DNA of 34,707 nt. Source: Nanobdellota archaeon (GTDB lineage: Archaea > Aenigmatarchaeota > Aenigmatarchaeia > QMZP01). The DNA lies in NCBI GenBank assembly GCA_043814765.1, contig JBDRJQ010000032.1, forward strand, positions 1 to 34,707, read 5' to 3'. Shown here piece after piece: positions 9,344 to 30,639 of the stretch. The position numbers were made by a program, and so were the translations under genes. The notes under the pieces are model-generated. The model was not told the origin of the DNA. It made no database searches and saw only the letters and a program-made list of their open reading frames with translations. Within the stretch, counting starts at the first letter, position 1. Each line of letters starts with the position of its first letter.

Positions 9344-11836
9344 ATGGCAAAATTAGAAAGGTTGGTTTTACAAGGTTTCAAATCCTTCAAAAGGAAAGCA
9401 TCTGTTCCTTTTCCTTCTGGATTCTCTGTTGTTACAGGACCGAACGGAAGCGGCAAGTCTAACATAGGCGATGCCATATCATTTGTTTTGGGTAAAACTT
9501 CATCCCGTGTTTTAAGGGCAAAAAAAGCTCAAGATTTGATTTTTCACGGAGGAAAGAAAAAGGGAGCCTCTGATTATGCCATCGTCACGCTTTATTTTGA
9601 TAACAAGGATAAGAGTTTACCATTGCCTGAACAAAACCCTTCTATAAGCAGAAGGATAAACCAAAAGGGCGTGAGTACATACAGGCTAAACGGAAAGGTT
9701 GTAACAAGACAGCAAATAGTTGACTTGTTTGCTCAGGCAGGCATTCATCATGACGGTCATAACATGATACAGCAGGGCGACGTAACGCAGATTGTGGAGA
9801 TGGATTCTGTTGAGAGAAGAGAGATATTGGATGAGATTTCAGGTATTGCAGAGTACGATGATAAAAAAAGAAAGGCTGAAAAGGAGCTTCTAAAGATAGA
9901 TGATAAAGTTAAGGAAGCAGATATTATTCTCAATGAAAAAACTCAGATAATAGAGAAGCTAAAAACTGACAGGGACGCTGCAATAGAATATAAAAAGGGT
10001 GTTGATGATTTAGACAACATAAGAAGTGCCATAACAATTAAGAGTTTTTCTGAAGCAGAAAGCGGCTTAAAGAGCGCAGAAGAAAAAATCAAAAGTAAAG
10101 AAAAGGGGTTTGAAGATCTTGAAAAGGAAATAAAGAAATTGGACGAAGAACTGATAAAGGAAGAGCAGGCCCTTAAAAAATTAACTGACAACGTGGTAAA
10201 AGCTTCTAACCAAATAGAAGTTACTAAAAAAATAGAGAGATTAAGGTCTGATATAGAGATAACAAAAGACAAAATAATCACAAAGCGCAATGAGATTATA
10301 AGGCTTCAAGACATGATTGATAGAATACAAATAATCAGCATGGGAAGGGGTGCAAGCCCCTTAATAAAAGATGTTTTAAAGATAAAGGGTGTTAGAGGAA
10401 CCTTTTCAAACTTAATTTCTGTACCAAACGAGTATTCAACTGCCGTTAGCATAGCCGCTGGCGGTCACATGAATGACATTGTAGTGGATACAACTGATGT
10501 TGCTGTTAAAGGTGTAAACTACTTGAAAGCAGCCAAAGCAGGCAGAGCGAGATTCATACCGCTGGATAAGATACAATCATTCAAGAAGGGCAACTTGCCT
10601 AAACCTGCTATAGGATGGCTATCAGATCTTGTGGAATACAGCCCCAGATACTCGGCCGCAGTAAAATATGTGCTCGGATCAACCGCTTGCGTAAAGGATA
10701 TTGAAACAGCCAAAAGGATATCATCAATTCAAAGGCTAAGAATGGTTAGCCTTGACGGCGATATGATGGAAGCTTCTGGAGCTATAACAGGCGGCTATTT
10801 TAAAAATAAAGTTAAGAGCACGACTGACGTTACCGGTTATGTTAATGAAAAAAACAGTCTCGAGAAAGAGATTGAAAAATACGAAGTAATTTTAAGGGAT
10901 TATAATCAACAGCTTGAAAAACTTGCTGATAAAGAAGTAGGAACATCTACTGCAAACTTTGAGCGGGAACGCATAAAAATCGATGAGAAGACAGAAAGGC
11001 TAAGAGAAAAGAGAAGTGATGCATACGAGAGAAGAGTTGAACTGCAGCAAACTATAAGCAAACTAAATATTCAAAAGGCACGATGGGAAGCAAAGCATGA
11101 TAATTTCAAGGTAAGCATTGAAGCTCATAAGAAAACAAAGAAGAAAGATATTGGAAAAGAGCTTGAAGAGTTCATGAAAAATTCTGTATTAAAATTAAAG
11201 GAAATGGAAATCAATCTCGTTGAGAAGATAGAGGTCATGGGACCAGTTAACATGAAGGCCATAGATGATTTTGAAACAATAAAAGAGGAGTTTGACGACT
11301 TCAAAGAAAAGGTTGATAAAATAGTTAAAGAGAAAACCTCCATAACTGAAACCATTGTAAAAATTGAAACAAAGAGGCTAACAACGTTCATGGCAACTTT
11401 AAATGAGGTTTCAAGCAATTTCAAGCAGGTTTACAGGGAGCTGACAGGCGGTGACGCAGATTTAGAGCTTGAGAATCAGAATGACATGAACACGGGCTTA
11501 ATGATAAAAGCTTCTCCTGGAGGCAAAAAACTGCTTAACATTGATGCTCTATCAGGAGGAGAAAAAACACTCACAGCATTTGCTTTCTTATTTGCAATAC
11601 AGAGGCACAAGCCTTCGCCATTTTATGTTCTTGATGAGGCTGACGCAGCACTAGACGAAGTAAACACAAAGAAGATTGTCGAACTAATCAAAAAGCAATC
11701 CAAGCTGGCCCAGTTCATCGTTATCTCTCATAACGACACTCTGGTTAGAGAAGGAGACCAGATATACGGAGTTACTATGGATGACGGTGAATCAAAGATA
11801 CTTACTATAGAGCTTCCTAAAACCAAAAACAACTAA
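9344..11836 (+). CDS. smc: Chromosome segregation protein SMC with short arms (830 aa)
   Basis: GFKSF, Walker A GPNGSGKSN, Q-loop IQQGDV, hinge (GVRG...GRARFIPLD...VSLDGD...GAITGG), signature LSGGEK, Walker B LDEADAALD, FIVISH. Confidence 0.95.
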   Translation: MAKLERLVLQGFKSFKRKASVPFPSGFSVVTGPNGSGKSNIGDAISFVLGKTSSRVLRAKKAQDLIFHGGKKKGASDYAIVTLYFDNKDKSLPLPEQNPSISRRINQKGVSTYRLNGKVVTRQQIVDLFAQAGIHHDGHNMIQQGDVTQIVEMDSVERREILDEISGIAEYDDKKRKAEKELLKIDDKVKEADIILNEKTQIIEKLKTDRDAAIEYKKGVDDLDNIRSAITIKSFSEAESGLKSAEEKIKSKEKGFEDLEKEIKKLDEELIKEEQALKKLTDNVVKASNQIEVTKKIERLRSDIEITKDKIITKRNEIIRLQDMIDRIQIISMGRGASPLIKDVLKIKGVRGTFSNLISVPNEYSTAVSIAAGGHMNDIVVDTTDVAVKGVNYLKAAKAGRARFIPLDKIQSFKKGNLPKPAIGWLSDLVEYSPRYSAAVKYVLGSTACVKDIETAKRISSIQRLRMVSLDGDMMEASGAITGGYFKNKVKSTTDVTGYVNEKNSLEKEIEKYEVILRDYNQQLEKLADKEVGTSTANFERERIKIDEKTERLREKRSDAYERRVELQQTISKLNIQKARWEAKHDNFKVSIEAHKKTKKKDIGKELEEFMKNSVLKLKEMEINLVEKIEVMGPVNMKAIDDFETIKEEFDDFKEKVDKIVKEKTSITETIVKIETKRLTTFMATLNEVSSNFKQVYRELTGGDADLELENQNDMNTGLMIKASPGGKKLLNIDALSGGEKTLTAFAFLFAIQRHKPSPFYVLDEADAALDEVNTKKIVELIKKQSKLAQFIVISHNDTLVREGDQIYGVTMDDGESKILTIELPKTKNN

Positions 11837-12842: not shown

Positions 12843-13922
12843 ATGGAAAATTTAACTGAAATTGGTTCTGGAGAAAAAATCAGTGAAAGTATCGGAACCA
12901 ATAGAATAGCAGGTTCTAATTGGCCAGTATCAGAGGGTAGGTACGAAGTTGGTGACGAGTCGTCTCCGGTAGCTGTATGCACGATGGCTTCTGTTGACTT
13001 GAAACTTCCAATGGGAAAAATTGCTATCCTAGGAAAATGCGTAACTGAAAACATAGGCATTGAGAAGATTGTAAAAAACATCGTATCGAACCCGAAAATA
13101 AGATTCCTAATCATGTGCGGGAAGATATCAAAAGGTCATTTTGTTGAGCAGGCTATAGAGTCATTGATAGAAAATGGTGTCGATGACCAAATGAACATAA
13201 TAGGAGCAAAAGGGGCAATGCCGTCTGTAAAGAATTTAACAAAGGAGGATGTTGAAAAATTCAAAAAACAGGTTATTCTCATTAACATTGCAGGTGAAGA
13301 AGAACATGAAAAGATATTGGATGTTGTTAAGGCCTGTTATCAAAAAAATCCGGGAGTGTTTGAATACAGCAATGAAAACGAAATTATCAAGGAGGTAAAT
13401 GAAATGGAAGGAGAAGAAATTAAAGCTGCAGAGGCAGAAGTCGCTGCAATGAATATTGGAAGCATAAGAGCTGATGCTTCTTTGCTGTCTTGGAAACAAG
13501 ATGAAAAGGGATTTTTTATAATATGCCCAGATTCTCATAGAAATGAAATAATTGTTGAATATCACGCTCATGATGGTAAGATTTTAGGCACTATAATAGG
13601 AATTAACGCAGAAGAGATATTCAAAACTATTATAGCAAAGAATCTTGTATCAGAAAAGCCTCATTGCGCTTATCTCGGTGCAGAGCTAATAAAGGCTGAA
13701 ATCGCGATGAAAAACAAACTGGATTATATACAGGACAGCGAGCTCATAATACCAACAAAAGTTGAGAAAAGAAGCGAGATAAGAATACACGGGCACAATA
13801 TGGAAAAGAAAACCTACATGACAAAGAATGAAAAGAACAGTCCAGTGTTCATAGAAAAGGTGGATCATGACGAGGATTTGAAAAAAGTTCTGCAGGAAAT
13901 AGGAATGTGCAGGGTTTTTTAG
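12843..13922 (+). CDS. MtrA-like corrinoid-binding domain fused to a C-terminal DUF4346-like domain
   Basis: WPV..G.Y.VGD..SPVAVCT.AS, G.CVTENIGIEKIV.NIVSNP.IRFLI.CG...KGH and IIGAKGA.P are MtrA signatures including the His ligand. The C-terminus D.KGFFII...HCAYLG.EL.KAE.A......YIQD is DUF4346-like. No C-terminal TM anchor. Confidence 0.88.
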   Translation: MENLTEIGSGEKISESIGTNRIAGSNWPVSEGRYEVGDESSPVAVCTMASVDLKLPMGKIAILGKCVTENIGIEKIVKNIVSNPKIRFLIMCGKISKGHFVEQAIESLIENGVDDQMNIIGAKGAMPSVKNLTKEDVEKFKKQVILINIAGEEEHEKILDVVKACYQKNPGVFEYSNENEIIKEVNEMEGEEIKAAEAEVAAMNIGSIRADASLLSWKQDEKGFFIICPDSHRNEIIVEYHAHDGKILGTIIGINAEEIFKTIIAKNLVSEKPHCAYLGAELIKAEIAMKNKLDYIQDSELIIPTKVEKRSEIRIHGHNMEKKTYMTKNEKNSPVFIEKVDHDEDLKKVLQEIGMCRVF

Positions 13923-14739: not shown

Positions 14740-15315
14740 ATGATACTACCAGATCATGAAATCAAAAAGCTTCTTGTTGAAGGCAGGCTAAAAATAGAGC
14801 CTTTGGATGATCCTGAAAATCAAATACAACCTGCTGGTGTTGATCTTAGACTTGGCAACACGTTTAGGATATTCAAGACATCTGCAGTGCCTTACATAGA
14901 CACAAAAAAGAAAGCAGAAGACTACACAGAATTGGTTGAGATTGAAGACGGAAATCAATTTATAATACATCCCAGTGAATTCGTTTTAGGCTCTGTTAAA
15001 GAATTCATTAAATTGCCTGATGACCTAGTCGGTTCTCTGGACGGCAGATCTGGCATAGGAAGATTGGGCGTATCAATACACACGACTTCATCTTCCATAA
15101 ACCCTGGCTGGGAAGGAATACTTGTTTTGGAGATATCAAACGTGGGAAAGATGCCTGTTGCACTTTACCCAGGAATGCGCATAGCAAAACTTGCATTGCA
15201 TAAACTGTCGTCACCATCAGAAAAACCTTACAACATAAAAAAAGGTGTTCTTTATCACGGTCAAGACAACACAAACATGCAGAGCAAGATTCATGAAGAG
15301 TTTGACGGAAACTAG
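14740..15315 (+). CDS. dcd: dCTP deaminase
   Basis: QIQPAGVDLRLG, F.IHP.EFVL, DGRS..GRLG, PGWEG.LVLE.SN, LYPGMRI, Y.GQ. Confidence 0.93.
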   Translation: MILPDHEIKKLLVEGRLKIEPLDDPENQIQPAGVDLRLGNTFRIFKTSAVPYIDTKKKAEDYTELVEIEDGNQFIIHPSEFVLGSVKEFIKLPDDLVGSLDGRSGIGRLGVSIHTTSSSINPGWEGILVLEISNVGKMPVALYPGMRIAKLALHKLSSPSEKPYNIKKGVLYHGQDNTNMQSKIHEEFDGN

Positions 15316-16868
15316 TTTTCTAATAGACGATTGTGCACGTAATAGGCGTTTTCATATGGTACTATGCCCTTATCTATAGACAGGGTATGATGCACTATTT
15401 TTCTTATTTCAATATACAGAAGATATCTAAATTCTGAATGGGATGGCAGACCCGTTACACTAAATTTAGTATAATTTTCATTATCAAACGTGTCTCTAAT
15501 CTCATAAACGTAAACAATATCCGGTTCATGTTCGTTTGCATATGCTATTGCGTCTGCCATGCCTCTATCTCCGAGTAACTTGTCCAGACCGGATTTTTCA
15601 TAAGCCGTTTCTCCCTCTTTCCAAATATAGAAATCAGTCGTCTTGCCAAATAAGAACAGAATGGATGGGTTATCTGTAAAGATTGTTTCTGGGTTATATT
15701 TTTCAAATTCCTGATAAAGATACCAGTCTGTATTGTCTACAATGCGTAATGGATATACAACACCGCCAAATACTGAAAATATAACCAGTAAGATGAACAA
15801 ATAGCCAACGATTCTTTTTTTATCAATCCCCAAATCAAAGAATATCTTCGCTGTTATCAAAACCACAGGCACCATTATCTCGTAGAGGTAGTGCCTGAAT
15901 AAAGCACCTGTAAAAATGAAAGAGATTGAATAAACTGCTAACCAAAGCAATATGAAGAGATATCCCTTATCTGAAGGGCTTTTTAGGTTCTTTAAACCAA
16001 TTCTGCCTTTAATCATGTAAAAAATCAAACCTATGCCCAATAATAGCAACAGGTAAGTATCCCATCTAAAAGAGTTTATAATTGCGTTTATTTTTGGAAG
16101 TGCCGATTCCATCCACACAGCAGGCGTTACTGGGTTGTGATATGACTGGTATGTGATTATTGAACGGAAAAAGGCTTCAAAGGAATTTGTAGCGAATAGG
16201 TAAATTAAAAATGGGGAAAACCCTATCAGCAATCCAGCTAAATATTTAGAGCATTTGTCCAAAAGGTCCTTTCTGTCATAAGCTAGAATGAACAGGAAAA
16301 GCAATGCTGCAAAGATTATAGGTGACTGTCTGAACATTCCAGCAGCACCAATCATAATTCCAGAGAAAAGGAACTTGTGTTTATGGTCTGACAGGTATAT
16401 CAAAAAGGCCAGTGACATTAGAAATGTGGTGAAAGGCTCTGTGAACAAAACACCAGCTACGCTGTTAACTAGGGATGAAATACCGAAAAACAATGCGGCT
16501 ACCAGAGCTATTTTTTCTTTCTTGTCATGATTTTTGAATAGTTTCAGTGCTATCAAATAGACTAGCCATGTTGTTAAGACGTTAATCAGGACTGAAAGCA
16601 CTCTCATGGCTAACAGGGTTGTGAAAGTGTTGCCAAAAAGGAATGTTATTGGAACAGATATCCATATTATTGCTGGTGGCTTTTGAAGGCCATTGAAATA
16701 ATCAACAAACGCATGCTTGCCATTCAACTCCAGCCAGGAATTGTAAATAGCAGCTGCTTCATCATAAGTGAATGATTGGTATATGGATATGGATAGTAAT
16801 GGTATTAGGAAAGAGGCTATCAAAATCAGATACAAGATCCTTCTTTGTGTAAGTAATTCCTTAACCAT
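15312..16868 (-). CDS. GT-C fold lipid-linked-sugar glycosyltransferase (ArnT/PMT-like, GT39/GT83 type)
   Basis: First TM followed by a DE motif (TYDEA) and KPP, roughly a dozen TM helices, RHYL, soluble C-terminal domain. Confidence 0.8.
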   Translation of the reverse strand: MVKELLTQRRILYLILIASFLIPLLSISIYQSFTYDEAAAIYNSWLELNGKHAFVDYFNGLQKPPAIIWISVPITFLFGNTFTTLLAMRVLSVLINVLTTWLVYLIALKLFKNHDKKEKIALVAALFFGISSLVNSVAGVLFTEPFTTFLMSLAFLIYLSDHKHKFLFSGIMIGAAGMFRQSPIIFAALLFLFILAYDRKDLLDKCSKYLAGLLIGFSPFLIYLFATNSFEAFFRSIITYQSYHNPVTPAVWMESALPKINAIINSFRWDTYLLLLLGIGLIFYMIKGRIGLKNLKSPSDKGYLFILLWLAVYSISFIFTGALFRHYLYEIMVPVVLITAKIFFDLGIDKKRIVGYLFILLVIFSVFGGVVYPLRIVDNTDWYLYQEFEKYNPETIFTDNPSILFLFGKTTDFYIWKEGETAYEKSGLDKLLGDRGMADAIAYANEHEPDIVYVYEIRDTFDNENYTKFSVTGLPSHSEFRYLLYIEIRKIVHHTLSIDKGIVPYENAYYVHNRLLEN

Positions 16869-16917: not shown

Positions 16918-17667
16918 ATGCCAAAACCAGTTTTTGTGATAATTGCAGGCGGCCTTGCTACGCGAATGAAGCCCGTCACAGAAGAGATTCCAAAATGCCT
17001 TATTGACGTTAGTGGGAAGCCACTAATACAGCATCAAGTAGAATATCTAGCTAAAAGAGGCTACAATGATTTCATATTCTGCGTAGCGCATTTAGCAGAC
17101 AAGGTTAAAGAACACTTTGATGATGGCTCTGCTTTCGGTATTAATGTAAAATATTCACACGAGCCAAAGGAGCTGTTAGGAACAGCTGGTGCCGTTAAAT
17201 TCGTCGAGAATATGGTAGGTGATATATGCATAGTATATTACGGGGACAATCTCACAACAATAGATTTTGACAAGGCGCTTGAATTTCACAGGTTAAAGAA
17301 CAGCGACTTTACAGTTCTTCTGCGGCCTCTTCCAGAAGGCTACAAATCTAGTAGCATAATAACCCTTGATGAATCAGGAAAGGTTACAACCTTCTTTGAG
17401 AAGCCTCCACAAGAGGAATTTGATAAGCATGAAGAAGAGAAAATGTACATAAATGACGGCATTTACATAATGAACAGAAACGTGTTCTCACTAATACCTA
17501 AAAACACAAAGTTTGATTTTGCGAAAGATTTGATACCTTTATTGATGGAAAGGAGCATGAATTTCTACGGTTATGTTTCCAGTGAATTTTTTCGAGAGCT
17601 TGGAAGGGTTGAGAAATACGAAAAATTCAAAGAAGAATTAAAGGAAAGAGGTAAGGTATTGGAATGA
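16918..17667 (+). CDS. hddC: Sugar-1-phosphate nucleotidyltransferase, HddC-like (heptose-1-P guanylyltransferase)
   Basis: AGGLATRM.P.T..IPKCL, LLGTAGA, YGDNL, FEKP; operon context with GmhB/HddA/GmhA. Confidence 0.8.
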   Translation: MPKPVFVIIAGGLATRMKPVTEEIPKCLIDVSGKPLIQHQVEYLAKRGYNDFIFCVAHLADKVKEHFDDGSAFGINVKYSHEPKELLGTAGAVKFVENMVGDICIVYYGDNLTTIDFDKALEFHRLKNSDFTVLLRPLPEGYKSSSIITLDESGKVTTFFEKPPQEEFDKHEEEKMYINDGIYIMNRNVFSLIPKNTKFDFAKDLIPLLMERSMNFYGYVSSEFFRELGRVEKYEKFKEELKERGKVLE

Positions 17668-17674
17668 ACATCGA

Positions 17675-18265
17675 ATGGAGCACTATATGAACAAAGCAGT
17701 ATTTTTGGATAGGGACGGTGTTATAAACAGCACCGACGGTAATGCTCCGTTAAGCGCAGACAGGTTTTTTATCATGGACGGCGTATCAGAGGCTATTAAG
17801 AAATTAAATGAAAAAGGATACCTTGTAATTATCGTAACGAACCAACCTGACATAGCAAAGGGTTTATTGACTTTCAAAGGTCTAGAAGAGATGCACGAGA
17901 AGATGAAAAAAATCCTGACAAAAGCTGGCGCGCATCTTGATGCAGTCTACATATGCCCGCACCATCCCACAAAGGGATTTAAAGGAGAAATCCCTGAACT
18001 GAAAATGAAATGCGAATGCAGAAAACCCAAACCAGGACTTCTGCTTCAAGCTATGAAAGAATACAACATTGATTCAGAACAATCATGGATGATTGGTGAT
18101 TCAAAAACAGACATAGTCGCAGGCCAGGCAGCAGGCGTGAGAACGATAAGGGTGACCTGCAGCGAAGGTGCAAAGAGCAAAGAGGAACTAGCGCTTGGCG
18201 AAGTCCGCCCAGACTTAATTGTCTATAATCTGAAAGAAGCTGTTGATTTTATAATAAAATCTTAG
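17675..18265 (+). CDS. gmhB: D,D-heptose-1,7-bisphosphate phosphatase (HAD IIIA)
   Basis: AVFLDRDGVIN, VTNQP, Zn site CPH...CECRKPKPG, MIGDS.TD. Confidence 0.92.
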   Translation: MEHYMNKAVFLDRDGVINSTDGNAPLSADRFFIMDGVSEAIKKLNEKGYLVIIVTNQPDIAKGLLTFKGLEEMHEKMKKILTKAGAHLDAVYICPHHPTKGFKGEIPELKMKCECRKPKPGLLLQAMKEYNIDSEQSWMIGDSKTDIVAGQAAGVRTIRVTCSEGAKSKEELALGEVRPDLIVYNLKEAVDFIIKS

Positions 18266-18277
18266 AATTTTCTCTAC

Positions 18278-18308
18278 TATATAAAGCTTTCGGCGAAAGG
18301 TTTATATA
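18278..18308. promoter_or_regulatory. 31-bp palindrome comprising back-to-back BRE+TATA elements upstream of hddA
   Basis: TATATAAA-G-CTTTCG-G-CGAAAG-G-TTTATATA; each strand reads CGAAAG-n-TTTATATA. Confidence 0.7.
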
Positions 18309-18365
18309 ATTGCGTCATTAATTATAATATTGATTCTTAGTTATTTGCAAATTTTGGTGTAAAAA

Positions 18366-19361
18366 ATGATTGTTACGAGAACTCCTTTGAGAATATCATT
18401 GGGTGGCGGAGGAACAGATTTACCTTTCTATTGCTCAAAGCACGGAGCATCCCTAATAACTGCTGCTATTAACAAATACATTTACATAACTGTTAACAAA
18501 AGAGTTGAAAAAACCATAAAATTAAACTACTCTAAAACAGAGATTGTTGATTCTGTTGATGAAATAAAACACCCGCTAATAAGAGAAGCATTAAAGCTTA
18601 CCGGAATAAGCAAACCTCTGGAACTTCACTCTGTTGCTGAACTTCCTTCAGGAACAGGGCTGGGATCATCACAAGTCTTTCTTGTGGGATTATTGAATGC
18701 CTTGTATTATTACAAGGGGGAGATTGTCTCCAAATACAAATTGGCTGAAGATGCATCACGCATCACAATGGACATACTGAAAGAGCCTTGCGGAAAACAG
18801 GATCAGTACGCTGCATCTTTTGGCAATTTAAACCACCTGAAAATAAACACATCAGGAAAGGTAACTGTTTCACCTGTAAACATTTCACATGAGGACCTGA
18901 AGAAACTGGAAAACAACTTAATGATGTTCTACACAGGCTTTCAGAGAAGCGCTATAGAAATTCTGGAAGACCAGAAAGAAAAATCAGAAAAGCCAAGCGA
19001 AGAAGCAATCTTTGATTATTATCATGAAATAAAAAAAATAGGTGCAGAGAGCTTGAAATGCCTTGAATCTGGAAATCTAAGAAAGTTTGGACAGTGGATG
19101 AACATTCACTGGGATTTGAAAAAGGGGATTTCAACAAAAATGACTAATCCAAAGATAGATGAATGGTATAACATAGCTCTTCAAAACGGTGCGCTCGGGG
19201 GAAAGATTGTCGGCGCTGGTGGCGGAGGATTCTTGATGCTCTATACTGAAACAAGCCACAGCGATATACAGAAAGCACTTGAAAAGGAGGGCCTTGTTAG
19301 AACAGACTTCAAGTTCGACTTTGACGGCACAAGAATTGTATTCAATGGAATGCAGTTTTAG
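18366..19361 (+). CDS. hddA: GHMP-family heptose-7-phosphate 1-kinase
   Basis: RTPLRISLGGGGTD.P, P.GTGLGSS, GKQDQYA..FG, GALGGKIVGAGGGGF. Confidence 0.9.
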   Translation: MIVTRTPLRISLGGGGTDLPFYCSKHGASLITAAINKYIYITVNKRVEKTIKLNYSKTEIVDSVDEIKHPLIREALKLTGISKPLELHSVAELPSGTGLGSSQVFLVGLLNALYYYKGEIVSKYKLAEDASRITMDILKEPCGKQDQYAASFGNLNHLKINTSGKVTVSPVNISHEDLKKLENNLMMFYTGFQRSAIEILEDQKEKSEKPSEEAIFDYYHEIKKIGAESLKCLESGNLRKFGQWMNIHWDLKKGISTKMTNPKIDEWYNIALQNGALGGKIVGAGGGGFLMLYTETSHSDIQKALEKEGLVRTDFKFDFDGTRIVFNGMQF

Positions 19362-19448
19362 GAGGTTAGTATGCATCCTGATTATATTAACAAGTCAACT
19401 GCATGCAATTTTGGGAGAGACAGTATGCACAATGATTACATTAACAAG
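19350..19448 (+). repeat. Diverged tandem duplication spanning the hddA end, RBS and gmhA start
   Basis: atgcagttttaggaggttagtatgcatcctgattatattaacaag (19350-19394) versus atgcaattttgggagagacagtatgcacaatgattacattaacaag (19403-19448). Confidence 0.8.
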
Positions 19449-20036
19449 CACATGACAGAAATAGAAGATATTGTAAGAGATATTGACAGGGAACAAATAT
19501 CCAAAGCTATAGACATACTTTTTGAAGCATGGAAAAATGGAAATAATGTTTATTTTATGGGCTGTGGTGGAAGTGCTGGAACAGCTTCTCATTTCGCTGC
19601 GGATCTTGCCAAGACAACAATTGTGGGTGATAAAAAAAGATTCAGGGCGCATTCGCTTGTAGACAACCCATCATTAAAGACTGCATGGATAAATGATGAC
19701 GGATGGAACTCTGTTTTCAAAGAGCAGATAAGAAACTTCATGCAACCAGGGGATGTGGTTGTTGGCATCAGTGTTCATGGGGGAAGCGGCAAAGGAAATG
19801 CAGGAGACTGGTCACAAAATCTTACTGTTGCAATGCAATTCGTCAAAGAGAATGGTGGTAAATGCATCGGTCTGGCTGGTTTTGATGGCGGCGCTTTTAA
19901 AGAGCTGTGCGATGCCTGCATAATAGTTCCAAAAAATTCAACTCCGCTTGTAGAGGGCTTCCATAGCGACATACAGCACCTAATAATTTTCAGGCTCAAG
20001 GAACTGATAGCAAACTATGAGGATGTAAATGTTTAG
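19371..20036 (+). CDS. gmhA: Sedoheptulose-7-phosphate isomerase (SIS domain); alternative in-frame start at 19425
   Basis: G.GGSA.TASHFAADL, ND.G...VF.EQ, GDVVVGIS, GFDGG, VE..H...H. Confidence 0.88.
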   Translation: MHPDYINKSTACNFGRDSMHNDYINKHMTEIEDIVRDIDREQISKAIDILFEAWKNGNNVYFMGCGGSAGTASHFAADLAKTTIVGDKKRFRAHSLVDNPSLKTAWINDDGWNSVFKEQIRNFMQPGDVVVGISVHGGSGKGNAGDWSQNLTVAMQFVKENGGKCIGLAGFDGGAFKELCDACIIVPKNSTPLVEGFHSDIQHLIIFRLKELIANYEDVNV

Positions 20037-20478
20037 CAATAAAAACAAGGTTGTGGCTGATAACATTATCAACTACACCATATATGACGAGATTGATGTA
20101 GAAGACAGGGTCTTTGTCACATGGAACATGTTTGAAGAAGCAATGGAAACGCTTCACGGAAAACTGATAGACCACCAAAAAGAAAAACAACTGGAGTTTG
20201 ATGCCATATACGCGCCTCCAAGAGGAGGACTGTGCTTAGGAGTTAAGCTTTCATATATGACTAAGATACCACTGATAACAGATCCCAGCAAGGTAACAAG
20301 CAGCACTGTAGTTATTGACGACTGCACAAAGAGCGGCAAAACAATGATGCCGTTCAGAGACAATGTAACACTGGTGATGTTCCAGCATCCCAAATCAGTC
20401 TTCACGCCGACGATATATTATCAGGAGACTGATAAGCAGATAAACTTCTGCTGGGAATCAAAGGATGAAAGGAATTAA
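20029..20478 (+). CDS. Minimal type I phosphoribosyltransferase-fold protein
   Basis: PPRGGL loop and PRPP-binding motif VVIDDCTKSGKT; C-terminal FCWE as in purine PRTases; overlaps the gmhA stop. Confidence 0.75.
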   Translation: MFSNKNKVVADNIINYTIYDEIDVEDRVFVTWNMFEEAMETLHGKLIDHQKEKQLEFDAIYAPPRGGLCLGVKLSYMTKIPLITDPSKVTSSTVVIDDCTKSGKTMMPFRDNVTLVMFQHPKSVFTPTIYYQETDKQINFCWESKDERN

Positions 20479-20574
20479 ACAATTAACCAAAATGATATAG
20501 TTGAATGACTTATGCTGTCTGCATACAGTCGTCTTTAAAATGTTAACAGAGTATATTGGTAACAGAGATGTCTT

Positions 20575-21249
20575 ATGGCTATATTCATAGACTCAGGAAA
20601 TGTAGAAGAGGTAAAGAAGTACATGAACATGGGTATCATTAGAGGTGCAACAACAAACCCAACTATCCTGATGAAGGATGGAGTTACAGGCGGTCTGGAA
20701 GGCATCAAAAAGGTTTCAATAGAAATCGCCAACATAATTGCTCCTTATCCTCTTTCTGTTGAGGTTCTTAACAACGACCCAAAGGGCATGGCTGAACAGG
20801 CAATAGAATTCTCAAAATGGGCAGATAATATTGTTATCAAAATACCAGCTCATGGACCAAACGGCGAGCTGGACAACTTCAATATAATTCATGATCTTGA
20901 AACCAAAGCCAATGTGCGTGTTAACGTAACTGCAATGATGAGTGCACAGCAGTGTTTCCTTGCTGCGATGGCTGGTGCAAGTTATGTTTCTTTATTCTGT
21001 GGGAGAGTTAATAACATGGGACATGATGCAAAAGTAGAGATTAGAAAGCTGAGAAAGCTTTTGGATGAGCATAAACTCAAGGCAAAGATAATCGCAGCTT
21101 CAACAAGAGAAGTCATAAACGTTATAGACTGGCTTGAAGCAGGAGCCCATATAGTTACAGTATTGCCACCTTTCTTGAACGGGATGCTAGTACACCCGTA
21201 CACAAAGGAAACAGTTAAAATGTTCCTGGATGATGCAGTTAAACTGTAA
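20575..21249 (+). CDS. tal: Transaldolase (TalC/MipB class)
   Basis: IFIDS, GATTNPT, LSVEV (Glu), Schiff-base VIKIP, VNVT, YVSLFCGR (Phe, so transaldolase rather than F6P aldolase), AAS.R, HP.T. Confidence 0.9.
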   Translation: MAIFIDSGNVEEVKKYMNMGIIRGATTNPTILMKDGVTGGLEGIKKVSIEIANIIAPYPLSVEVLNNDPKGMAEQAIEFSKWADNIVIKIPAHGPNGELDNFNIIHDLETKANVRVNVTAMMSAQQCFLAAMAGASYVSLFCGRVNNMGHDAKVEIRKLRKLLDEHKLKAKIIAASTREVINVIDWLEAGAHIVTVLPPFLNGMLVHPYTKETVKMFLDDAVKL

Positions 21250-21384: not shown

Positions 21385-21408
21385 AAATTTCTATTTTTGG
21401 AGAAACAA

Positions 21409-21819
21409 ATGGAAATGAATGTAGACATTGAAAGAATGTCTAAAGAAACAGACATAGGCGTCTCTGCAATCAAGAATGCCCTTGGCATTCCGCTGGAGGA
21501 ATGCAAAGATTCCACCATCGAAGAAGTAAGAGCCGTTTACGATGATGCTCCAGATGGCAGCGAAGCACAAGCAGCTGCATTTAACAAGTGTATAGAATTA
21601 GCTTCCACCATCGAAGAAGTAAGAGCAGCTTACAATGATGCTTCATATGGCAGCGAAGCAGAATCAGCTGCATTGGAGAAGTGGAATAAACTTTCACTCA
21701 AGGCAGTTGAAGAAGCTTCCACCATCGAAGAAGTAAGAGCCGTTTACGATGATGCTCTAGATGGCAGCGAAGCAGAATCAGCTGCAATCCGGAAACTCTC
21801 GGAGTTCTTCCGAAAGTAA
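21409..21819 (+). CDS. Acidic helical repeat protein (3 repeats), function unknown
   Basis: Three copies of STIEEVRA.Y.DA..GSEA..AA; GGAG upstream of ATG 21409. Confidence 0.75.
   Translation: MEMNVDIERMSKETDIGVSAIKNALGIPLEECKDSTIEEVRAVYDDAPDGSEAQAAAFNKCIELASTIEEVRAAYNDASYGSEAESAALEKWNKLSLKAVEEASTIEEVRAVYDDALDGSEAESAAIRKLSEFFRK
21511..21786 (+). repeat. Three near-identical intragenic direct repeats of about 70 bp
   Basis: tccaccatcgaagaagtaagagc...atggcagcgaagca...cagctgca starting at 21511, 21604 and 21718; spacings of 93 and 114 bp are both multiples of 3. Confidence 0.92.
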
Positions 21820-21859
21820 GCCGAATCGTGCAGAACTAATTCTAGCGGAGGATTCCATA

Positions 21860-22477
21860 GTGGATACAATTTTTATAGGTTATCTCATAGGCTACATCGG
21901 AGCAACACTCACGACGTTCTCTTATGTTGCCCAATTAACAAAAAGCCTCAAGACAAAAAGCACAGGTGATCTATCGCTCATAATGTACATCATGGTCATT
22001 GAGGGTTGCACGCTCTGGCTTGTTTACGGCATTTTAGTAATGAACTGGGTCATAATTGGCGCAAACAGTGTCAGCTTGCTAATCATTTCCAGTATTTTAT
22101 ATCTCATAGTGAAGTACAACAACCAAACTGTAAAGGCTGTTGTGGTTGTAATCATTGCCATGTATTTCATGGTGGCTATGCTGTTCATCAAGTTGGGATG
22201 GATATTAGCAGTCGGCCTGATGGCGACTGCTCTGACTTCCACCTGCAATCTTCCGCAGGTGTTCAAAATTCTGAAGACCAAGAGGACAGAGGACATATCG
22301 CTTCCGTTCTATGTTGTCCTTACAATAGGCATAATCTGCTGGCTCACACACGGGATTCTTCTTAAGGACGTTCCGCTTATCACTGCTAACATAATAACAA
22401 TGTGCACAGTCGGCTCTGTTTTGACTCTGAAACTCTTGGAGAAAAGGAACCGAATTGCTAAAAGGAGACCATCATGA
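21860..22477 (+). CDS. Tandem SemiSWEET/PQ-loop (MtN3) transporter, about 7 TM
   Basis: Two units, LTT.SYVAQ..KSLKTKST.DLS...W..YG.....IIGAN and LTST..LPQ..KILKTKRT.DIS...W..HG....P.ITAN, joined by a hydrophobic helix. GTG 21860 is preceded by GGAGG. Confidence 0.85.
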   Translation: MDTIFIGYLIGYIGATLTTFSYVAQLTKSLKTKSTGDLSLIMYIMVIEGCTLWLVYGILVMNWVIIGANSVSLLIISSILYLIVKYNNQTVKAVVVVIIAMYFMVAMLFIKLGWILAVGLMATALTSTCNLPQVFKILKTKRTEDISLPFYVVLTIGIICWLTHGILLKDVPLITANIITMCTVGSVLTLKLLEKRNRIAKRRPS

Positions 22478-22914: not shown

Positions 22915-23646
22915 TTAGTTCTTCTCACCGACAATCAGAACACTCGAACCTTGCCATTTGATAAGTGGCATTTTTTCTAAAGCTTCGCTCATTCGGATTG
23001 ATAAGTTTAGAAAAGAATCCGGTGTGAACGCGAAGGCAAACATGAATGGTTTTGTCTTTACCCACTTTAGGTATTTGCTCTCAAAGAACTTGCGATATGT
23101 GGATGGTTTGTAAGAATTTTCATTGGCTCTACGGTTCCTTGGTGTAAGTTCTAGAAGTTTACGTGGGATACTAACTGCATTGGATTCACAGAGAATGAAA
23201 TGCTTTCTTGTGACACGAAGCATTTCCTGAGCCATTCTTCTTGGATTGTCAACATGATGCATGACATTGAAGCAGCAGACCATATCGAAACTGTTGTCTT
23301 TGAATCCCTTTAGGTTTGTGGCGTCTGCCTGTTTTCCTTCTATTCCCATGCTCTGGATTTTCTTTACGCCCTCTTCTGAGAGATCTGTAGCAACATACCT
23401 TTTCGGTTTGAGAGCGTTTATTATCATTTTAGATGAAACACCGTCTCCTGCACCTATCTCTAGAATTGATAAGTTCTCCGGATTTTTGTCTTTTAGAAAG
23501 TCTATAACATAACCAACTTCCTTTGGTACGCGGTAAACCACTGCTATCTTGCCTTCCCACTGCTCTCTGAAAGTCATTTTCTCGCTAAAAAGCTCGTCAT
23601 AATAATCCTTCATTACTTTTTTCTTTTCCATCAATTTTTCTGCCAT
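22915..23646 (-). CDS. Class I SAM-dependent methyltransferase
   Basis: ILEIGAGDG motif I, ATDLS, ADA..L..F.DNSFD, VMHHV.NP.....EMLRV. ATG 23646 preferred over TTG 23667. Confidence 0.9.
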   Translation of the reverse strand: MAEKLMEKKKVMKDYYDELFSEKMTFREQWEGKIAVVYRVPKEVGYVIDFLKDKNPENLSILEIGAGDGVSSKMIINALKPKRYVATDLSEEGVKKIQSMGIEGKQADATNLKGFKDNSFDMVCCFNVMHHVDNPRRMAQEMLRVTRKHFILCESNAVSIPRKLLELTPRNRRANENSYKPSTYRKFFESKYLKWVKTKPFMFAFAFTPDSFLNLSIRMSEALEKMPLIKWQGSSVLIVGEKN

Positions 23647-23769
23647 ATCAGCACCAAGAGCACGCAATTCACGTATTTATTTGTTATATTCTACGTATAA
23701 TAGAAAGGTTTAAAAATATCACTCAATCATTAATATCTTATATAATTAATATAGTGTATCGGAGTTGTT

Positions 23770-25278
23770 ATGAAATTCATGTTCGTTTGTATGGGGTATG
23801 AAAACCTCTCTGCACAGCAGCTATCAGCAGTGCTGAAACAAAAGGGCCATGAAGTGGATCTGGCTTTTGATCCGGCGCTGTTTGATGACAAGATGTATTT
23901 CTATTATCCGGATCTTCATAAACTCCTTAGTGACAGAAATCGTGTTATAAAGAAAATAGTAGACAGTAAGCCAGATGCAATCGGATTCACTGTTTTTACA
24001 GATAATAATGAATGGGCATGCGACATTGCAAAGGAAGTGAAGAAACAGCTTCCGGACACTCCCATAATATTCGGTGGAATCTACCCTACAACATGCCCTG
24101 AAGTTGTGATAAAAAATGATTTTGTGGATATTGTTTGTGAAGGAGAGGGTGAAGAATCCCTGCCAGAGCTTCTTGACAGCATGCAGAAAGGTAAGATTGA
24201 TTACAAAATAAGAAATCTTTGGTTCAAAAAAGATGGCAAGATTATAAAAAATCCACAAAGGCCTCCTGTGGATATTGAGAAATTGCCTTATTATGATAAA
24301 GAGTTGTTTGAGGGGCACGTGCCTCTTGACAGGGTTTACCTGACTGTAATAGGAAGAGGCTGCCTGTTTGGATGCTCTTTCTGTTCGCAGAACTTCTTAA
24401 GGAAGTTCAATAAAGGATTGGACAAAAGAATCAAGTCTGTAGATAATGTGATGAGAGAACTGAAGATAATGAAGGAAAAATACAATTACAGAGAAGTGGA
24501 TTTCAAGGACAACATATTGACAATGAACAAGGAATGGGTTATTGAACTGCTAGACAGATACAAAAAAGAGATTGGTGTCCCTTTCAGGGCTCTAAGCCAT
24601 GTTTTATGCATGGATTTGGAGATAGCAAAAGCTTTAAAGGGAGCAGGATGCCACAGAGTGCAGTTTGGCATACAATCGCTTAACGAGGAAACGAGAAGAA
24701 AGCATCTGTTAAGAACTGAAACAAATGAGGAAATAGAAAAGGCTCTTAGAGCATGCGATGAAGCAGGACTGGAATACTCATGCGATCATATGTTTGGTCT
24801 TCCTGGAGAGACTGAGGAAGATCAACTGCTGGCTGCAAATTTCTATAAAACTCTTAAGAAGTGCACAAGAGTGACATGTTTCTGGACCACGTTCTTCCCA
24901 AAAACAGATCTTGTTGCTATAGCAAGGAGAAGAAACGCTATCACTGATAAGGATATAGAAGAGATAAACAGAGCCAAAGCTGGTTACTATTATCTTGAAG
25001 GGGCTGTAAAGGATAAAGAATTGAAAAAACACTTCAGAAATTATCAGATGCTTTTCAGGCTTATGCCTATACTGCCTGAGAAGGTGGTTGACTTTATACT
25101 AAGAAATAATTTTCATAAACACCTTTATCTGCTTCCACAAAGAGCAATATTGCTTCCAATAGATCTGATTGTTTCTTTTATAAAAAAGGATAATTCCGCA
25201 TTCCAGTACATGAACTACTACTCTCTGCATCTAAATAAAAAAATAAAGAGAAGGCTAGGATTTAAGGTGGATAAATGA
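23770..25278 (+). CDS. Cobalamin-binding radical SAM enzyme (class B methyltransferase-like) 1
   Basis: N-terminal B12-binding domain (LSAVLK..GHEV, IIFGG..PT, GEGE); RGCLFGCSFC; MFGLPGET. Confidence 0.88.
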   Translation: MKFMFVCMGYENLSAQQLSAVLKQKGHEVDLAFDPALFDDKMYFYYPDLHKLLSDRNRVIKKIVDSKPDAIGFTVFTDNNEWACDIAKEVKKQLPDTPIIFGGIYPTTCPEVVIKNDFVDIVCEGEGEESLPELLDSMQKGKIDYKIRNLWFKKDGKIIKNPQRPPVDIEKLPYYDKELFEGHVPLDRVYLTVIGRGCLFGCSFCSQNFLRKFNKGLDKRIKSVDNVMRELKIMKEKYNYREVDFKDNILTMNKEWVIELLDRYKKEIGVPFRALSHVLCMDLEIAKALKGAGCHRVQFGIQSLNEETRRKHLLRTETNEEIEKALRACDEAGLEYSCDHMFGLPGETEEDQLLAANFYKTLKKCTRVTCFWTTFFPKTDLVAIARRRNAITDKDIEEINRAKAGYYYLEGAVKDKELKKHFRNYQMLFRLMPILPEKVVDFILRNNFHKHLYLLPQRAILLPIDLIVSFIKKDNSAFQYMNYYSLHLNKKIKRRLGFKVDK

Positions 25279-26774
25279 AAGTGGTTCTAATCCACTTGAA
25301 AGAGAATTTTACACCAGTACCTCCTACTGGTCTGTTATACGTAGGCACAATGCTAAAAAAGGAAGGCCATGAAGTACGCGTATTTGACGCAAACCTCAAG
25401 GAGCAGAAAGAAGTCATTGAAGAAATAAAGAAGATTGATCCTGATATGATAGGTTTCAGCGCAATGACAACATCTTACTCTATAACACAAGCGTTAAACA
25501 AAATGCTAAGAAAGGAGCTTCCCAACGCTTATTATTTTTGGGGCGGTGTTCATGCCACATCACTGCCTGAAGAGACAATGAAGGACAATGAACTGGATTT
25601 CCTTATTTACGGAGAAGGAGAGCTAACAATGGTCGATGTCTGCAAAAAAATAAAGGGTAAAAAGAAAGATGGCAAGCGCGGTATAGATTTGAAGGGCATA
25701 AATGGTGTGTATTATTTTGATAAAGGTAAATTGCATAAAAATCCTCCTCCAAAATATATTGAGGACTTGGACTCAATACCTATTCCTGACAGGTCGCTTC
25801 TAGGGAATTTTAAATGGTATCTGTCGCCTCCTGGAATACTCCGTGGTAAGTTTTACTACGGAATCACTACAATGTACACAACAAGAGGCTGCCCTTACCA
25901 GTGCATATTCTGCTCCAGCAAGATTGTTCACGGTTCAAGGATAAGAAGGAGATCCGTGGAAAACGTCCTCAAGGAGATGAAGTACTTAAAAGATGAGTTT
26001 GGTGTAACAGGCATATATTTTAACGATGACACTTTCGCAACTGACATTGTATGGCTAAAGAATTTCTGCAAGAAACTGAAGGAGAGCGGTCTCAACATGG
26101 TTTGGGGTTGCCAGACAAGAGCCAATATTGCATCCAACATTGAGATTCTTGAAACAATGAAAGATGGCGGATGCGTTCAGGTTGATATAGGATGCGAGAG
26201 CGGTTCTGACAAGATATTGAAAAACTTGAAAAAGGGCATAACAGCTGACATGATAATGAAATCCTTTGAAAACTTAAGAAAGGTTAAAATGGAAACCTTT
26301 GCGACATTTATTGTCGGAAACCCGGGCGAGACAATGGAAGATATTAAGATGACAGAAGAGATTGCAAAACATGCTCCTGGCGGAGTCAGCTTCCTTATAC
26401 TCGTACCTTATCCAGGCTCGCCGTTATACAAAATGGCTCATGACAACAAGTGGTTCGTTGATGAAAACGTAATGTTTGATGAGAGATGGACTAACAAGCA
26501 GTCTGACACTCCTGTGATGGAAGCCAGTTTCAGAGCAGAAGAGCTTGTCAGAATCAGGGCAGACCTGCAGAACCAGTTCTTTGTTCAGAACAATCTGCAG
26601 ACCATACTGGCTTTTTTAAGAAGCCCGTACTTTCTTTCAAAAGCAATATACACTGTTGTAAAGCATCCTATATTCATACTAAAATCCGCAAAAAGAGCTG
26701 TAGCAAAAAGGAAAGCAATGGATTTATTGGAAGATCTTTATCAGAAATTCAATGAGGACATGAGAACGGTTTAA
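25275..26774 (+). CDS. Cobalamin-binding radical SAM enzyme (class B methyltransferase-like) 2
   Basis: PP.GLLY, GGVHAT..PE, GEGE; TRGCPYQCIFC; FNDDTF; GCESGS; FIVG.PGET; PYPGS. Confidence 0.92.
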   Translation: MKVVLIHLKENFTPVPPTGLLYVGTMLKKEGHEVRVFDANLKEQKEVIEEIKKIDPDMIGFSAMTTSYSITQALNKMLRKELPNAYYFWGGVHATSLPEETMKDNELDFLIYGEGELTMVDVCKKIKGKKKDGKRGIDLKGINGVYYFDKGKLHKNPPPKYIEDLDSIPIPDRSLLGNFKWYLSPPGILRGKFYYGITTMYTTRGCPYQCIFCSSKIVHGSRIRRRSVENVLKEMKYLKDEFGVTGIYFNDDTFATDIVWLKNFCKKLKESGLNMVWGCQTRANIASNIEILETMKDGGCVQVDIGCESGSDKILKNLKKGITADMIMKSFENLRKVKMETFATFIVGNPGETMEDIKMTEEIAKHAPGGVSFLILVPYPGSPLYKMAHDNKWFVDENVMFDERWTNKQSDTPVMEASFRAEELVRIRADLQNQFFVQNNLQTILAFLRSPYFLSKAIYTVVKHPIFILKSAKRAVAKRKAMDLLEDLYQKFNEDMRTV

Positions 26775-27829
26775 TTTTGTTCAGCAGCTTTCTTGAATCT
26801 TCTTTCTTTTATTGTGTTCTTGAAATAATTCATTATAACACTGAAGTCCCTGTCTATCATTAGGTTGTAGTCATTGAAAGCCATGAAAGCGAAACAGCTC
26901 TTGCATGTGTTGTGTTTTTGTAGGTTTTCCCAGGCCTCCTTGAAGCCGACTTCTAGGAAATTCTTAGCTGGGAATTCTGTATCAATCATCTGCGAGCATG
27001 GATAAACCTTTCCGCTAGAGTCTATGATGCACATGAATCTTCCTGCATGACATTTTATTTTATCAAGATCATTTGATAGCTCTGATTCTTGCATGGATTT
27101 CTTTTTGTAGTCAGGCCACTCCTTTGTGTGTTTGAGTGACTTGAAAGACAGCATGATTGGGTAGCCTTTTTTCTTATAATCTATAATCTTCTGAACAGCT
27201 TTTTTGTAATCCTCATTCTCTGCTATAATACCAGAACCTGTTTGGAAGAATGGAAGAAGCCATTCTGTAACAAACCCCATTTTCTTTGAGAGCTCGAAGA
27301 TTGTGTCAATGGAATGAATATTTTGTTTTGTTATAGCAGTGCTTGTATGAACATTAACGCCATTGTCCTTTGCAAACTGTATTGCGTCAAGAACCTTTTT
27401 GAAAGAGCCTTTGCCCTTTCCCAAATCATGAGACTCTTCATCTCCGTCTATGCTTATGCAGAGCGTGTTTAATTTTTTAACTGCCTCTATCTTTTCACGG
27501 ACAAGATGCCCATTAGAATTCATGTTGCAAACCATGCCTTTTTTTCTTGCATAGCCTACAAGATATTCAATATCATCTCTTGTTAGTGGTTCTCCACCAC
27601 CGAAATTGATTCTTTTTGTTCCCATTTCAGCGAGTTCATCAAAAAGTTTTGTCAAATCTTCTGTAGTGAAATTTTTAACATCCTTTCTGCCCCAGTATAT
27701 GCCATAACAATAAGGGCAGCGTAGATTGCAAGTATTAGTGGTGTTAATGTGTACAACTATAGGCTTAGGTTTGGATGATTTGGCCAATAGCAAACTCTTC
27801 ACTAAACCAGCTTTGTCAAGTAGTTCCAT
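26771..27829 (-). CDS. Radical SAM protein with twitch/SPASM-type C-terminal domain
   Basis: CNLRCPYC, GGGEPL, SIDG, C.AG...C.ID..G.VYPC...CKSC. Confidence 0.9.
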   Translation of the reverse strand: MELLDKAGLVKSLLLAKSSKPKPIVVHINTTNTCNLRCPYCYGIYWGRKDVKNFTTEDLTKLFDELAEMGTKRINFGGGEPLTRDDIEYLVGYARKKGMVCNMNSNGHLVREKIEAVKKLNTLCISIDGDEESHDLGKGKGSFKKVLDAIQFAKDNGVNVHTSTAITKQNIHSIDTIFELSKKMGFVTEWLLPFFQTGSGIIAENEDYKKAVQKIIDYKKKGYPIMLSFKSLKHTKEWPDYKKKSMQESELSNDLDKIKCHAGRFMCIIDSSGKVYPCSQMIDTEFPAKNFLEVGFKEAWENLQKHNTCKSCFAFMAFNDYNLMIDRDFSVIMNYFKNTIKERRFKKAAEQN

Positions 27830-30638: not shown

Positions 30639-30639
30639 A

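Follow-up and report, generated by a model that had tools for sequence, protein, structure and literature searches.

Gene organization of the locus

The window, a stretch of 34,707 nucleotides (nt) from a Nanobdellota archaeon (contig JBDRJQ010000032.1), contained six open reading frames (ORFs), all on the + strand, which together spanned exactly positions 16918–21249. In order, they encoded a sugar-1-phosphate nucleotidyltransferase (16918–17667, 249 residues), a GmhB-like HAD-IIIA phosphatase (17675–18265, 196 residues), a GHMP sugar kinase of the HddA/WcbL type (18366–19361, 331 residues), a divergent GmhA-like SIS ketose-phosphate isomerase of an archaeal subtype (19371–20036, 221 residues), a 6-oxopurine (guanine/xanthine) phosphoribosyltransferase (PRT)-like protein (20029–20478, 149 residues), and a short TalC-type transaldolase of a distinct subfamily (20575–21249, 224 residues). 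We interpret the six genes as a single module whose proteins would build a nucleotide-activated aldose of higher carbon number for a surface glycan. The gaps between the genes were 7, 100, 9, −8, and 96 nt, respectively, which suggests up to three transcription units.

The proteins of the window were assigned to families by Pfam and NCBIfam profile matches, with the NCBIfam scores read against the curated cut-offs. All four families of the guanosine diphosphate (GDP)-heptose pathway (GmhA, HddA, GmhB, and HddC) were encoded together. Because the scores fell below the equivalog cut-offs, the names HddC, HddA, and GmhA apply at the family level only. The initial annotation, made from the sequence alone, had listed co-directional nucleotidyltransferase, GmhB-like, HddA-like, GmhA-like, and transaldolase genes. 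These five families were all recovered by the profiles; the sixth ORF (20029–20478), between the isomerase and transaldolase genes, had been overlooked. As judged from the sequences, the arrangement is far beyond chance, and related loci of many phyla share the gene order. The archaeal host named in the initial annotation was supported by an archaeal/eukaryotic-type uL16 (NF003239, 214 bits; cut-off 91), a digeranylgeranylglycerophospholipid reductase homolog, and an MtrA-like gene in the window.

Transaldolase and its subfamily

The transaldolase matched TAL_FSA of Pfam (E = 8e-39) and scored 156 bits against TIGR00875 (cut-off 246); all seven of its NCBIfam matches were below the cut-off. 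Its best solved relative was the transaldolase of Thermoplasma acidophilum (PDB code 3s0c, E = 1e-32), which has the same length. Residues D6, N28, E63, K89, N117, T119, S139, F141, R144, S176, and R178 aligned to the active-site residues of 3s0c. We take the roles of these residues, including that of K89 as the Schiff-base lysine, to be those given in the literature on the T. acidophilum enzyme. Compared with 3s0c, the window enzyme had a five-residue insertion, HGPNG, directly after K89-I-P. The motif deviations reported in the initial annotation were reproduced in this alignment: NVTAMMS and YVSLFCGR of the window enzyme aligned to NCTLVFN and YVSPFVGR of 3s0c, with TAMMS standing for TLVFN and Leu for Pro in the SPF motif.

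A scan of species-representative genomes of bacteria and archaea, with one genome per species, gave 224 pattern matches, of which 209 encoded a relative of the transaldolase. The locus counts given below rest on the best 80 of these 209 confirmed relatives. The TAMMS motif occurred in 75 of the 80 loci and HGPxGE in 79, and thus the deviations are not a peculiarity of the window gene. On the alignments, both motifs are marks of a large conserved transaldolase subfamily. Residues K89, E63, D6, N117, T119, R144, S176, and R178 were invariant in the subfamily alignment. The position that distinguishes transaldolase from fructose-6-phosphate aldolase (FSA) was Phe in 66 loci, Leu in nine, and Tyr in none, with five loci unmatched. 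A fructose-6-phosphate aldolase was considered for the window gene and rejected, since F141, in the SPF motif, is Phe and not Tyr at this switch position, as in enzymes of the transaldolase type.

The 80 loci spanned many bacterial phyla together with Nanoarchaeia, Aenigmatarchaeota, Altiarchaeia, and Methanoperedens, and the window transaldolase was 64–74% identical to their transaldolases. The best 120 database relatives were all at least 69% identical, and their named sources were Aenigmarchaeota, Omnitrophota, Neomarinimicrobiota, and Spirochaetota. When 17 of these 120 were aligned, TAMMS, the His, Gly, and Pro residues of HGPxGEL, and GRVNNMG were invariant. Among 1.84 billion cluster representatives, a graded series of relatives at 42–61% identity was found, and the full-length members that were aligned all carried an insertion behind the lysine and a residue other than Pro in the S-x-F-x-GR motif. 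The ESM Atlas returned generic transaldolase clusters only. In a plasmid collection, 138 records matched, all with less than 60% identity (best 38%), and no annotated subfamily member from a cultured host was among them. In a quick tree of 81 rows, the deep nodes were poorly separated and the archaeal rows required five changes, which is still compatible with a single origin; donor and direction of transfer therefore cannot be claimed from this tree.

One Blastocatellia assembly carried two subfamily transaldolases (L048:7953-8696 and L065:8001-8702). One copy lay within a full module, and the L048 copy was solitary, with an ABC transporter gene and an acyl-CoA-type gene as its neighbours.

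GmhA-like isomerase

The isomerase matched SIS_2 (E = 2e-11) and scored 85 bits against TIGR00441 (cut-off 209), and all of its top PDB matches were GmhA. Its start is possibly the second Met, near position 19425. The altered loop and insertion described in the initial annotation were borne out by comparison with Campylobacter GmhA (PDB code 1tk9), in which ISVHGGSGKGNAGDWSQN corresponded to ISTSGKSPN, an insertion of nine residues. Residues H61, S119, G122, S124, N126, and H180 of Escherichia coli GmhA were retained. The catalytic and phosphate-binding residues of the E. coli enzyme are Glu65, His180, Ser119-Thr120-Ser121, and Ser124. The module isomerases fell into two subtypes, an archaeal one, which includes that of the window, and a bacterial one. 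Both subtypes had Asp for Glu65 and an SV(H/G)GG loop where GmhA has STSG.

A second GmhA-like gene, with a short loop of the canonical type, lay directly after the transaldolase gene at L003:8699-9253 and in the same position in L007, L008, L010, L016, L017, L019, and L023. In these eight loci, two different isomerase paralogs thus flanked the transaldolase.

Nucleotidyltransferase, phosphatase, and kinase

The nucleotidyltransferase matched NTP_transferase (E = 2e-36). Its best NCBIfam model was mannose-1-phosphate guanylyltransferase, with 132 bits (cut-off 440), and HddC gave 101 bits (cut-off 300). The best PDB match was a UTP-glucose-1-phosphate uridylyltransferase (UGPase; PDB code 8x7s, E = 8e-36), which outscored the HddC-type enzyme of Yersinia (PDB code 5xhw, E = 5e-18). 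The choice of GDP as the nucleotide in the initial annotation was not borne out.

The phosphatase scored 172 bits against the beta-GmhB model NF006506 (cut-off 178) and 103 bits against alpha-type GmhB (cut-off 250), and passed the cut-offs of TIGR01656 and TIGR01662. E. coli GmhB (PDB code 3l8e) was the best PDB match (E = 1e-30), and the translation contained the motifs DRDGV and CPHH...CECRKP. The enzyme would remove the distal phosphate from a sugar 1,omega-bisphosphate. The kinase carried the GHMP_kinases_N and GHMP_kinases_C domains, and its best NCBIfam model was HddA (NF049969, 171 bits; cut-off 600). The best PDB matches were WcbL (PDB code 4usk, E = 1e-42) and a putative HddA of C. 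jejuni (PDB code 4n3o, E = 3e-42). It would phosphorylate the anomeric position of the sugar.

PRT-like protein

The ORF at 20029–20478 gave no Pfam match. It had 27 homologs, six of which are labelled hypoxanthine PRT by JGI. Several of the 27 lay on contigs equal in length to contigs on which transaldolase matches were found. The family profile matched the purine PRT of Pyrococcus horikoshii in the PDB (PDB code 1vdm, E = 8e-10). The AlphaFold model (pLDDT 79.8) retrieved 1vdm with Foldseek (E = 2e-9), as well as Sulfolobus HGXPRT and E. coli XGPRT. The acidic motif for binding of phosphoribosyl pyrophosphate (PRPP), VVIDDCTKSGKT, was conserved across the family. In the profile alignment, the loop from RGG to the PRPP motif was about eight residues long, compared with about 30 in 1vdm, and this short loop puts catalytic activity in doubt as far as can be judged from the alignment. 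The gene lay between the SIS and transaldolase genes in three of the 80 loci, all archaeal (L021, L040, and L054). In the archaeal form of the module, the protein is an accessory. Its role may be to supply guanine nucleotide, in which case it would lend slight support to a GDP-sugar, or may be a different one.

Conserved neighbourhood of the transaldolase

Adjacency of the isomerase gene was counted in the 77 loci that extended beyond the transaldolase by more than 700 nt on its upstream side. A GmhA-like gene ended within 300 nt upstream of the transaldolase start in 63 of these loci and was one gene away in nine more (72 of 77 together); none was found nearby in the remaining five (L014, L041, L045, L048, and L076). 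Partner genes were counted in the 59 loci in which the flank upstream of the transaldolase exceeded 6 kb: SIS was present in 55, GHMP kinase in 36, epimerase in 33, nucleotidyltransferase in 30, and GmhB in 28, and SIS, GHMP kinase, GmhB, and nucleotidyltransferase were all present in 19. Related transaldolases also occurred as fusion proteins, with a GHMP kinase (P0203, 562 residues) or with a HAD domain in either order (Tal+HAD in P0239 and HAD+Tal in P0259). Because of the adjacency to the isomerase gene and the fusions to kinase and HAD domains, the transaldolase belongs to the pathway, as the initial annotation had proposed, and it very probably feeds the isomerase in one route to an activated higher sugar.

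The bacterial loci were of the usual surface-polysaccharide kind and contained genes for Wzy, Wzz, a flippase, and an initiating transferase. In the bacterial versions, the module was accompanied by an epimerase, a Gfo/Idh/MocA oxidoreductase, and a short-chain dehydrogenase/reductase (SDR), joined in some loci by a DegT aminotransferase. Among the 66 of 117 unlabelled neighbour families that were scanned, the only pentose-phosphate gene beside the module was one split transketolase-like gene (L059), and ribose-phosphate isomerase and PRPP synthase were not found.

In 10 loci, a phosphofructokinase-family gene occupied the GmhB position directly upstream of the isomerase–transaldolase pair (L002, L014, L018, L025, L027, L032, L042, L056, L060, and L077), and in L014 it replaced the isomerase gene as well. 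The phosphofructokinase class is known to act on sedoheptulose 7-phosphate. In a Methanoperedens locus (L052:2683-4215), a fusion of a cytidylyltransferase-like domain and PfkB accompanied the SIS, transaldolase, and GmhB trio. This fusion was HldE-like, of the type used in the adenosine diphosphate (ADP)-heptose route, with a domain order that we take to be the reverse of that in E. coli HldE. A gene of glycosyltransferase family 9 (GT9), the heptosyltransferase family, lay near the module in L041.

A second architecture combined the isomerase–transaldolase pair with an HpcH/HpaI pyruvate aldolase. The HpcH family occurred in 19 loci, mainly of Omnitrophota and Planctomycetota, including L006, L011 (5315-12779), L015, L020, L035, L038, L055, L061, L066, L072, L074, and L079. 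The gene order was Gfo/Idh/MocA oxidoreductase, methyltransferase, SIS, transaldolase, HpcH/HpaI aldolase, HAD phosphatase, two SDRs, a cytidylyltransferase of the type acting on cytidine monophosphate (CMP)-sugar acids, and 2-hydroxyacid dehydrogenase. This arrangement looks like a route in the style of Kdo or KDN to an unusually long ulosonic acid.

Proposed pathway and comparison with known systems

The module was delineated from its gene families, catalytic residues, synteny, and domain fusions, and its substrates, step order, nucleotide, and carbon number are proposed as follows. The transaldolase would transfer a three-carbon dihydroxyacetone unit from fructose 6-phosphate to an aldose phosphate acceptor, so that the ketose phosphate would be made on site. 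The GmhA-like isomerase would convert the ketose phosphate to an aldose phosphate, the GHMP kinase would phosphorylate C1, and the GmhB-like phosphatase would take off the distal phosphate. The nucleotidyltransferase would complete the nucleoside diphosphate (NDP)-sugar in the last step. The sugar would then pass to a polyprenyl-phosphate carrier by a family-2 glycosyltransferase (GT2), be modified by tailoring enzymes, and be transferred to the surface by a GT-C enzyme.

The same four enzyme families are clustered in the GDP-D-glycero-alpha-D-manno-heptose pathway of the Aneurinibacillus S-layer and of Campylobacter and Burkholderia capsules. The closest solved relatives of the window isomerase, kinase, and phosphatase come from this pathway, and the window locus likewise stands in a surface-glycan context with glycosyltransferases. 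The window differs in the dedicated transaldolase and the inserted purine PRT-like gene, in the Asp for Glu65 and the enlarged phosphate loop of the isomerase, and in its nucleotidyltransferase, which is nearer to an archaeal-type UGPase-like enzyme than to HddC.

As the initial annotation had stated, the five activities also make a GDP-octose in lincomycin biosynthesis (PMC4351081, PMC12945683, PMC5854111). The lmb set comprises the transaldolase LmbR, the isomerase LmbN, the kinase LmbP, the phosphatase LmbK, and the guanylyltransferase LmbO (PMC4351081, PMC12945683). LmbR is described as using fructose 6-phosphate or sedoheptulose 7-phosphate as the donor and ribose 5-phosphate as the acceptor (PMC5854111). 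In this pathway, a dedicated transaldolase makes the ketose phosphate for a GmhA-like isomerase, as is proposed for the window. The lincosamide genes form an actinobacterial antibiotic cluster, whereas the window locus is of the surface-glycan type. LmbN is described as fused to a carrier protein, and the Lmb and window sets were compared by description only. A further transaldolase dedicated to a higher-carbon sugar is AprG, the atypical enzyme of apramycin octose assembly, which is reported to transfer a two-carbon unit from GlcNAc or GalNAc to an aminoglycoside aldehyde, outside any sugar-phosphate or nucleotide-activation route (PMC13707489). When the PDB matches of the window transaldolase were inspected, AprG was not recognised by name.

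Identity of the sugar product

For the acceptor, our preferred choice is erythrose 4-phosphate, with sedoheptulose 7-phosphate as the intermediate and an NDP-activated C7 sugar of the glycero-manno-heptose type as the product; this reading has about an even chance of being correct. By sequence, the isomerase, kinase, and phosphatase have heptose enzymes (GmhA, WcbL/HddA, and E. coli GmhB) as their closest characterised relatives. The HldE-type fusion and the GT9 gene near the module, the phosphofructokinase-family gene in the GmhB position of 10 loci, the full retention of the catalytic and phosphate-binding residues of the T. acidophilum transaldolase with Phe at the switch, and the SIS adjacency, the 19 full sets among 59 loci, and the transaldolase fusions also point to a heptose. 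Heptoses are common in bacterial glycans, and an archaeal N-glycan is known to contain one. Several observations weigh against this product. None of the five window enzymes reached a curated heptose-equivalog cut-off in NCBIfam. The isomerase had Asp for Glu65 and Val and His for T120 and S121 of E. coli GmhA, and its phosphate loop was rebuilt and nine residues longer. Transaldolases of the subfamily were 64–85% identical to one another across two domains, compared with about 36–38% identity to ordinary TalC/FSA, and the HGPxGE insertion after the Schiff-base lysine was invariant. A subfamily so tight, with an invariant insertion, suggests that the enzyme has a specialised function and is not surplus housekeeping capacity. 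The module was also present in Planctomycetota and Acidobacteriota, which normally make sedoheptulose 7-phosphate via the pentose phosphate pathway, and in phyla with their own supply a dedicated transaldolase would be redundant. An archaeon without transketolase, in turn, would lack erythrose 4-phosphate. Finally, among characterised pathways, only that of the lincosamides has these five activities in one cluster, and its product is an octose.

Use of ribose 5-phosphate as the acceptor, as in LmbR, would give octulose 8-phosphate and an NDP-octose, a product that we regard as possible but doubtful. Ribose 5-phosphate is available in archaea without a full pentose phosphate pathway, which counts for an octose. 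The sharply distinct and strongly conserved transaldolase subfamily, the altered phosphate loop of the isomerase, the lack of any window protein at the heptose-equivalog cut-off, and the retention of the module in bacteria expected to have their own sedoheptulose 7-phosphate would all fit such a product. LmbR, LmbN, LmbP, LmbK, and LmbO constitute the one known pathway with exactly these activities (PMC4351081, PMC12945683), but the likeness is one of described activities. The tailoring classes near the modules match those in the lmb tables (epimerase M, dehydrogenase L, oxidoreductase Z, and aminotransferase S), yet such classes are common to all sugar-nucleotide loci. A short Streptomyces protein of the transaldolase family, P0205, has the TAxMS and SLFxGR marks, but is not known to be LmbR. 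A search for homologs of the high-GC relative P0159 yielded nothing labelled LmbR and only a 'transaldolase family protein' of Streptomyces sp. The HldE-type and GT9 genes near the module point instead to heptose chemistry. Free aldo-octoses are not known from bacterial or archaeal surface glycans, yet the module was found at 209 places.

It is unlikely, though less so than a chance association, that the pair makes a different sugar phosphate, with a hexose phosphate or else a modified or deoxy aldose as a possible starting compound. The final sugar would then be C9 or otherwise unusual, and the kinase route of the window would be one of several ways to activate it. The isomerase–transaldolase pair is the sole constant part of the module, and about 19 loci replace the kinase, phosphatase, and nucleotidyltransferase by the HpcH aldolase, the HAD phosphatase, and the CMP-sugar-acid-type cytidylyltransferase, in a Kdo/KDN-like logic. 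The eight loci with a second GmhA-like gene after the transaldolase would also fit, and the HGPxGE insertion, which adjoins the catalytic lysine, could alter the shape of the acceptor site. No particular acceptor is positively supported, however, and the closest homologs of the downstream enzymes act on heptose phosphates. That the transaldolase is an ordinary central-metabolism gene merely beside a heptose cluster is very improbable, and this explanation was rejected on synteny. It would account for the retention of all catalytic residues of a normal transaldolase, the 96-nt gap to the upstream gene, and the solitary second copy away from sugar genes in one Blastocatellia genome (L048). Against it stand the isomerase adjacent or one gene away in 72 of 77 loci from many phyla and two domains, the fusion of related transaldolases to kinase and phosphatase domains, and the finding of subfamily members in glycan-type loci only, apart from a few solitary cases.

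More tentatively, the transaldolase–isomerase pair could be an unrecognised, widely transferred sugar-lengthening cassette that makes aldose phosphates of C8 or longer from central metabolites. It would provide an NDP-octose for the surface of the window archaeon and long ulosonic acids in Omnitrophota and Planctomycetota, with the lincosamide route as an offshoot; we consider this doubtful. If it were true, the pair in Omnitrophota and Planctomycetota would feed a pyruvate aldolase and a CMP-transferase to form ulosonic acids longer than any known.

An archaeal heptose pathway is not in itself new: heptose occurs in the N-glycan of T. acidophilum, and an ADP-heptose cluster was predicted earlier in an acid-mine archaeon. 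What is new is the transaldolase–isomerase pair as a conserved cross-domain module. No published description of the module, with a transaldolase within heptose or polysaccharide clusters, was found in full-text literature searches that excluded subscription journals and supplements. If the product is a heptose, the module would be self-sufficient, its own dedicated transaldolase furnishing the sedoheptulose 7-phosphate. Such a route would matter for organisms whose central metabolism is reduced, DPANN-type archaea among them. If it is an octose or a longer sugar, the module would introduce a new monosaccharide class for prokaryotic surface glycans and an evolutionary source for lincosamide sugar biosynthesis. 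Either way, the pair is a marker of glycan loci across many uncultured phyla, and the five small soluble enzymes are a compact target for in vitro reconstitution.

Other genes of the window

On the − strand, upstream of the cluster and divergent from it, lay a gene for a GT-C fold glycosyltransferase (15312–16868; PMT_2, E = 7e-12), a candidate enzyme for moving the sugar from the lipid carrier to the surface acceptor in the last step. It had no ortholog among the 80 loci; another PMT_2 gene followed the transaldolase in the archaeal locus L040.

Five further − strand genes encoded proteins whose counterparts recurred beside the module in the archaeal loci L001 and L009. These were an S-adenosylmethionine (SAM) methyltransferase (22915–23667; Methyltransf_11, E = 8e-17), with homologs 50% and 69% identical in L001 and L009, respectively; a calcineurin-like metallophosphoesterase (27867–28700; Metallophos, E = 3e-19), with a 58% identical homolog in L001; an NAD-dependent sugar epimerase/dehydratase (29703–30692; Epimerase, E = 9e-46), with homologs 71% identical in L009 and 53% in L001; a flavin adenine dinucleotide (FAD)-dependent oxidoreductase of the amine-oxidase fold (30640–31935; Amino_oxidase, E = 3e-22); and a GT2 of the polyprenyl-phosphate-sugar synthase type, ArnC/AglJ-like (31944–32645; Glycos_transf_2, E = 7e-22), with weak NCBIfam matches to ArnC, PgfS, and AglJ and a 60% identical homolog in L009. 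The oxidoreductase scored 222 bits against NF005548 (cut-off 389), and its homologs adjoined the module in L001, L009, L014, and L073. The epimerase is likely a tailoring enzyme, and the oxidoreductase is a putative one.

Downstream of the module, a 140-residue ORF (21397–21819) contained a 93-nt tandem repeat (21510–21683, 1.9 copies, 87% matches) with the repeat units STIEEVRA.Y.DA..GSEA..AA, and its family match was sub-threshold only. Directly downstream of the sugar module, positions 21761–22477 encoded a membrane protein of 238 residues with two PQ-loop/MtN3 repeats, a full SWEET-like topology. Two tandem B12-binding radical-SAM genes and a convergent radical-SAM/SPASM gene occupied 23770–27829 within the glycan-type island, with weak homologs in a few related loci. 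The window also encoded an LPG-synthase-TM protein. An SMC protein of 830 residues (9344–11836) matched the archaeal SMC model of 1165 positions in three stretches, and its coiled coil would therefore be much shortened. At 12843–13922, an MtrA-like domain was fused to a pterin-binding DUF4346 domain, and the adjoining genes were thymidylate-synthase-like and dCTP-deaminase.

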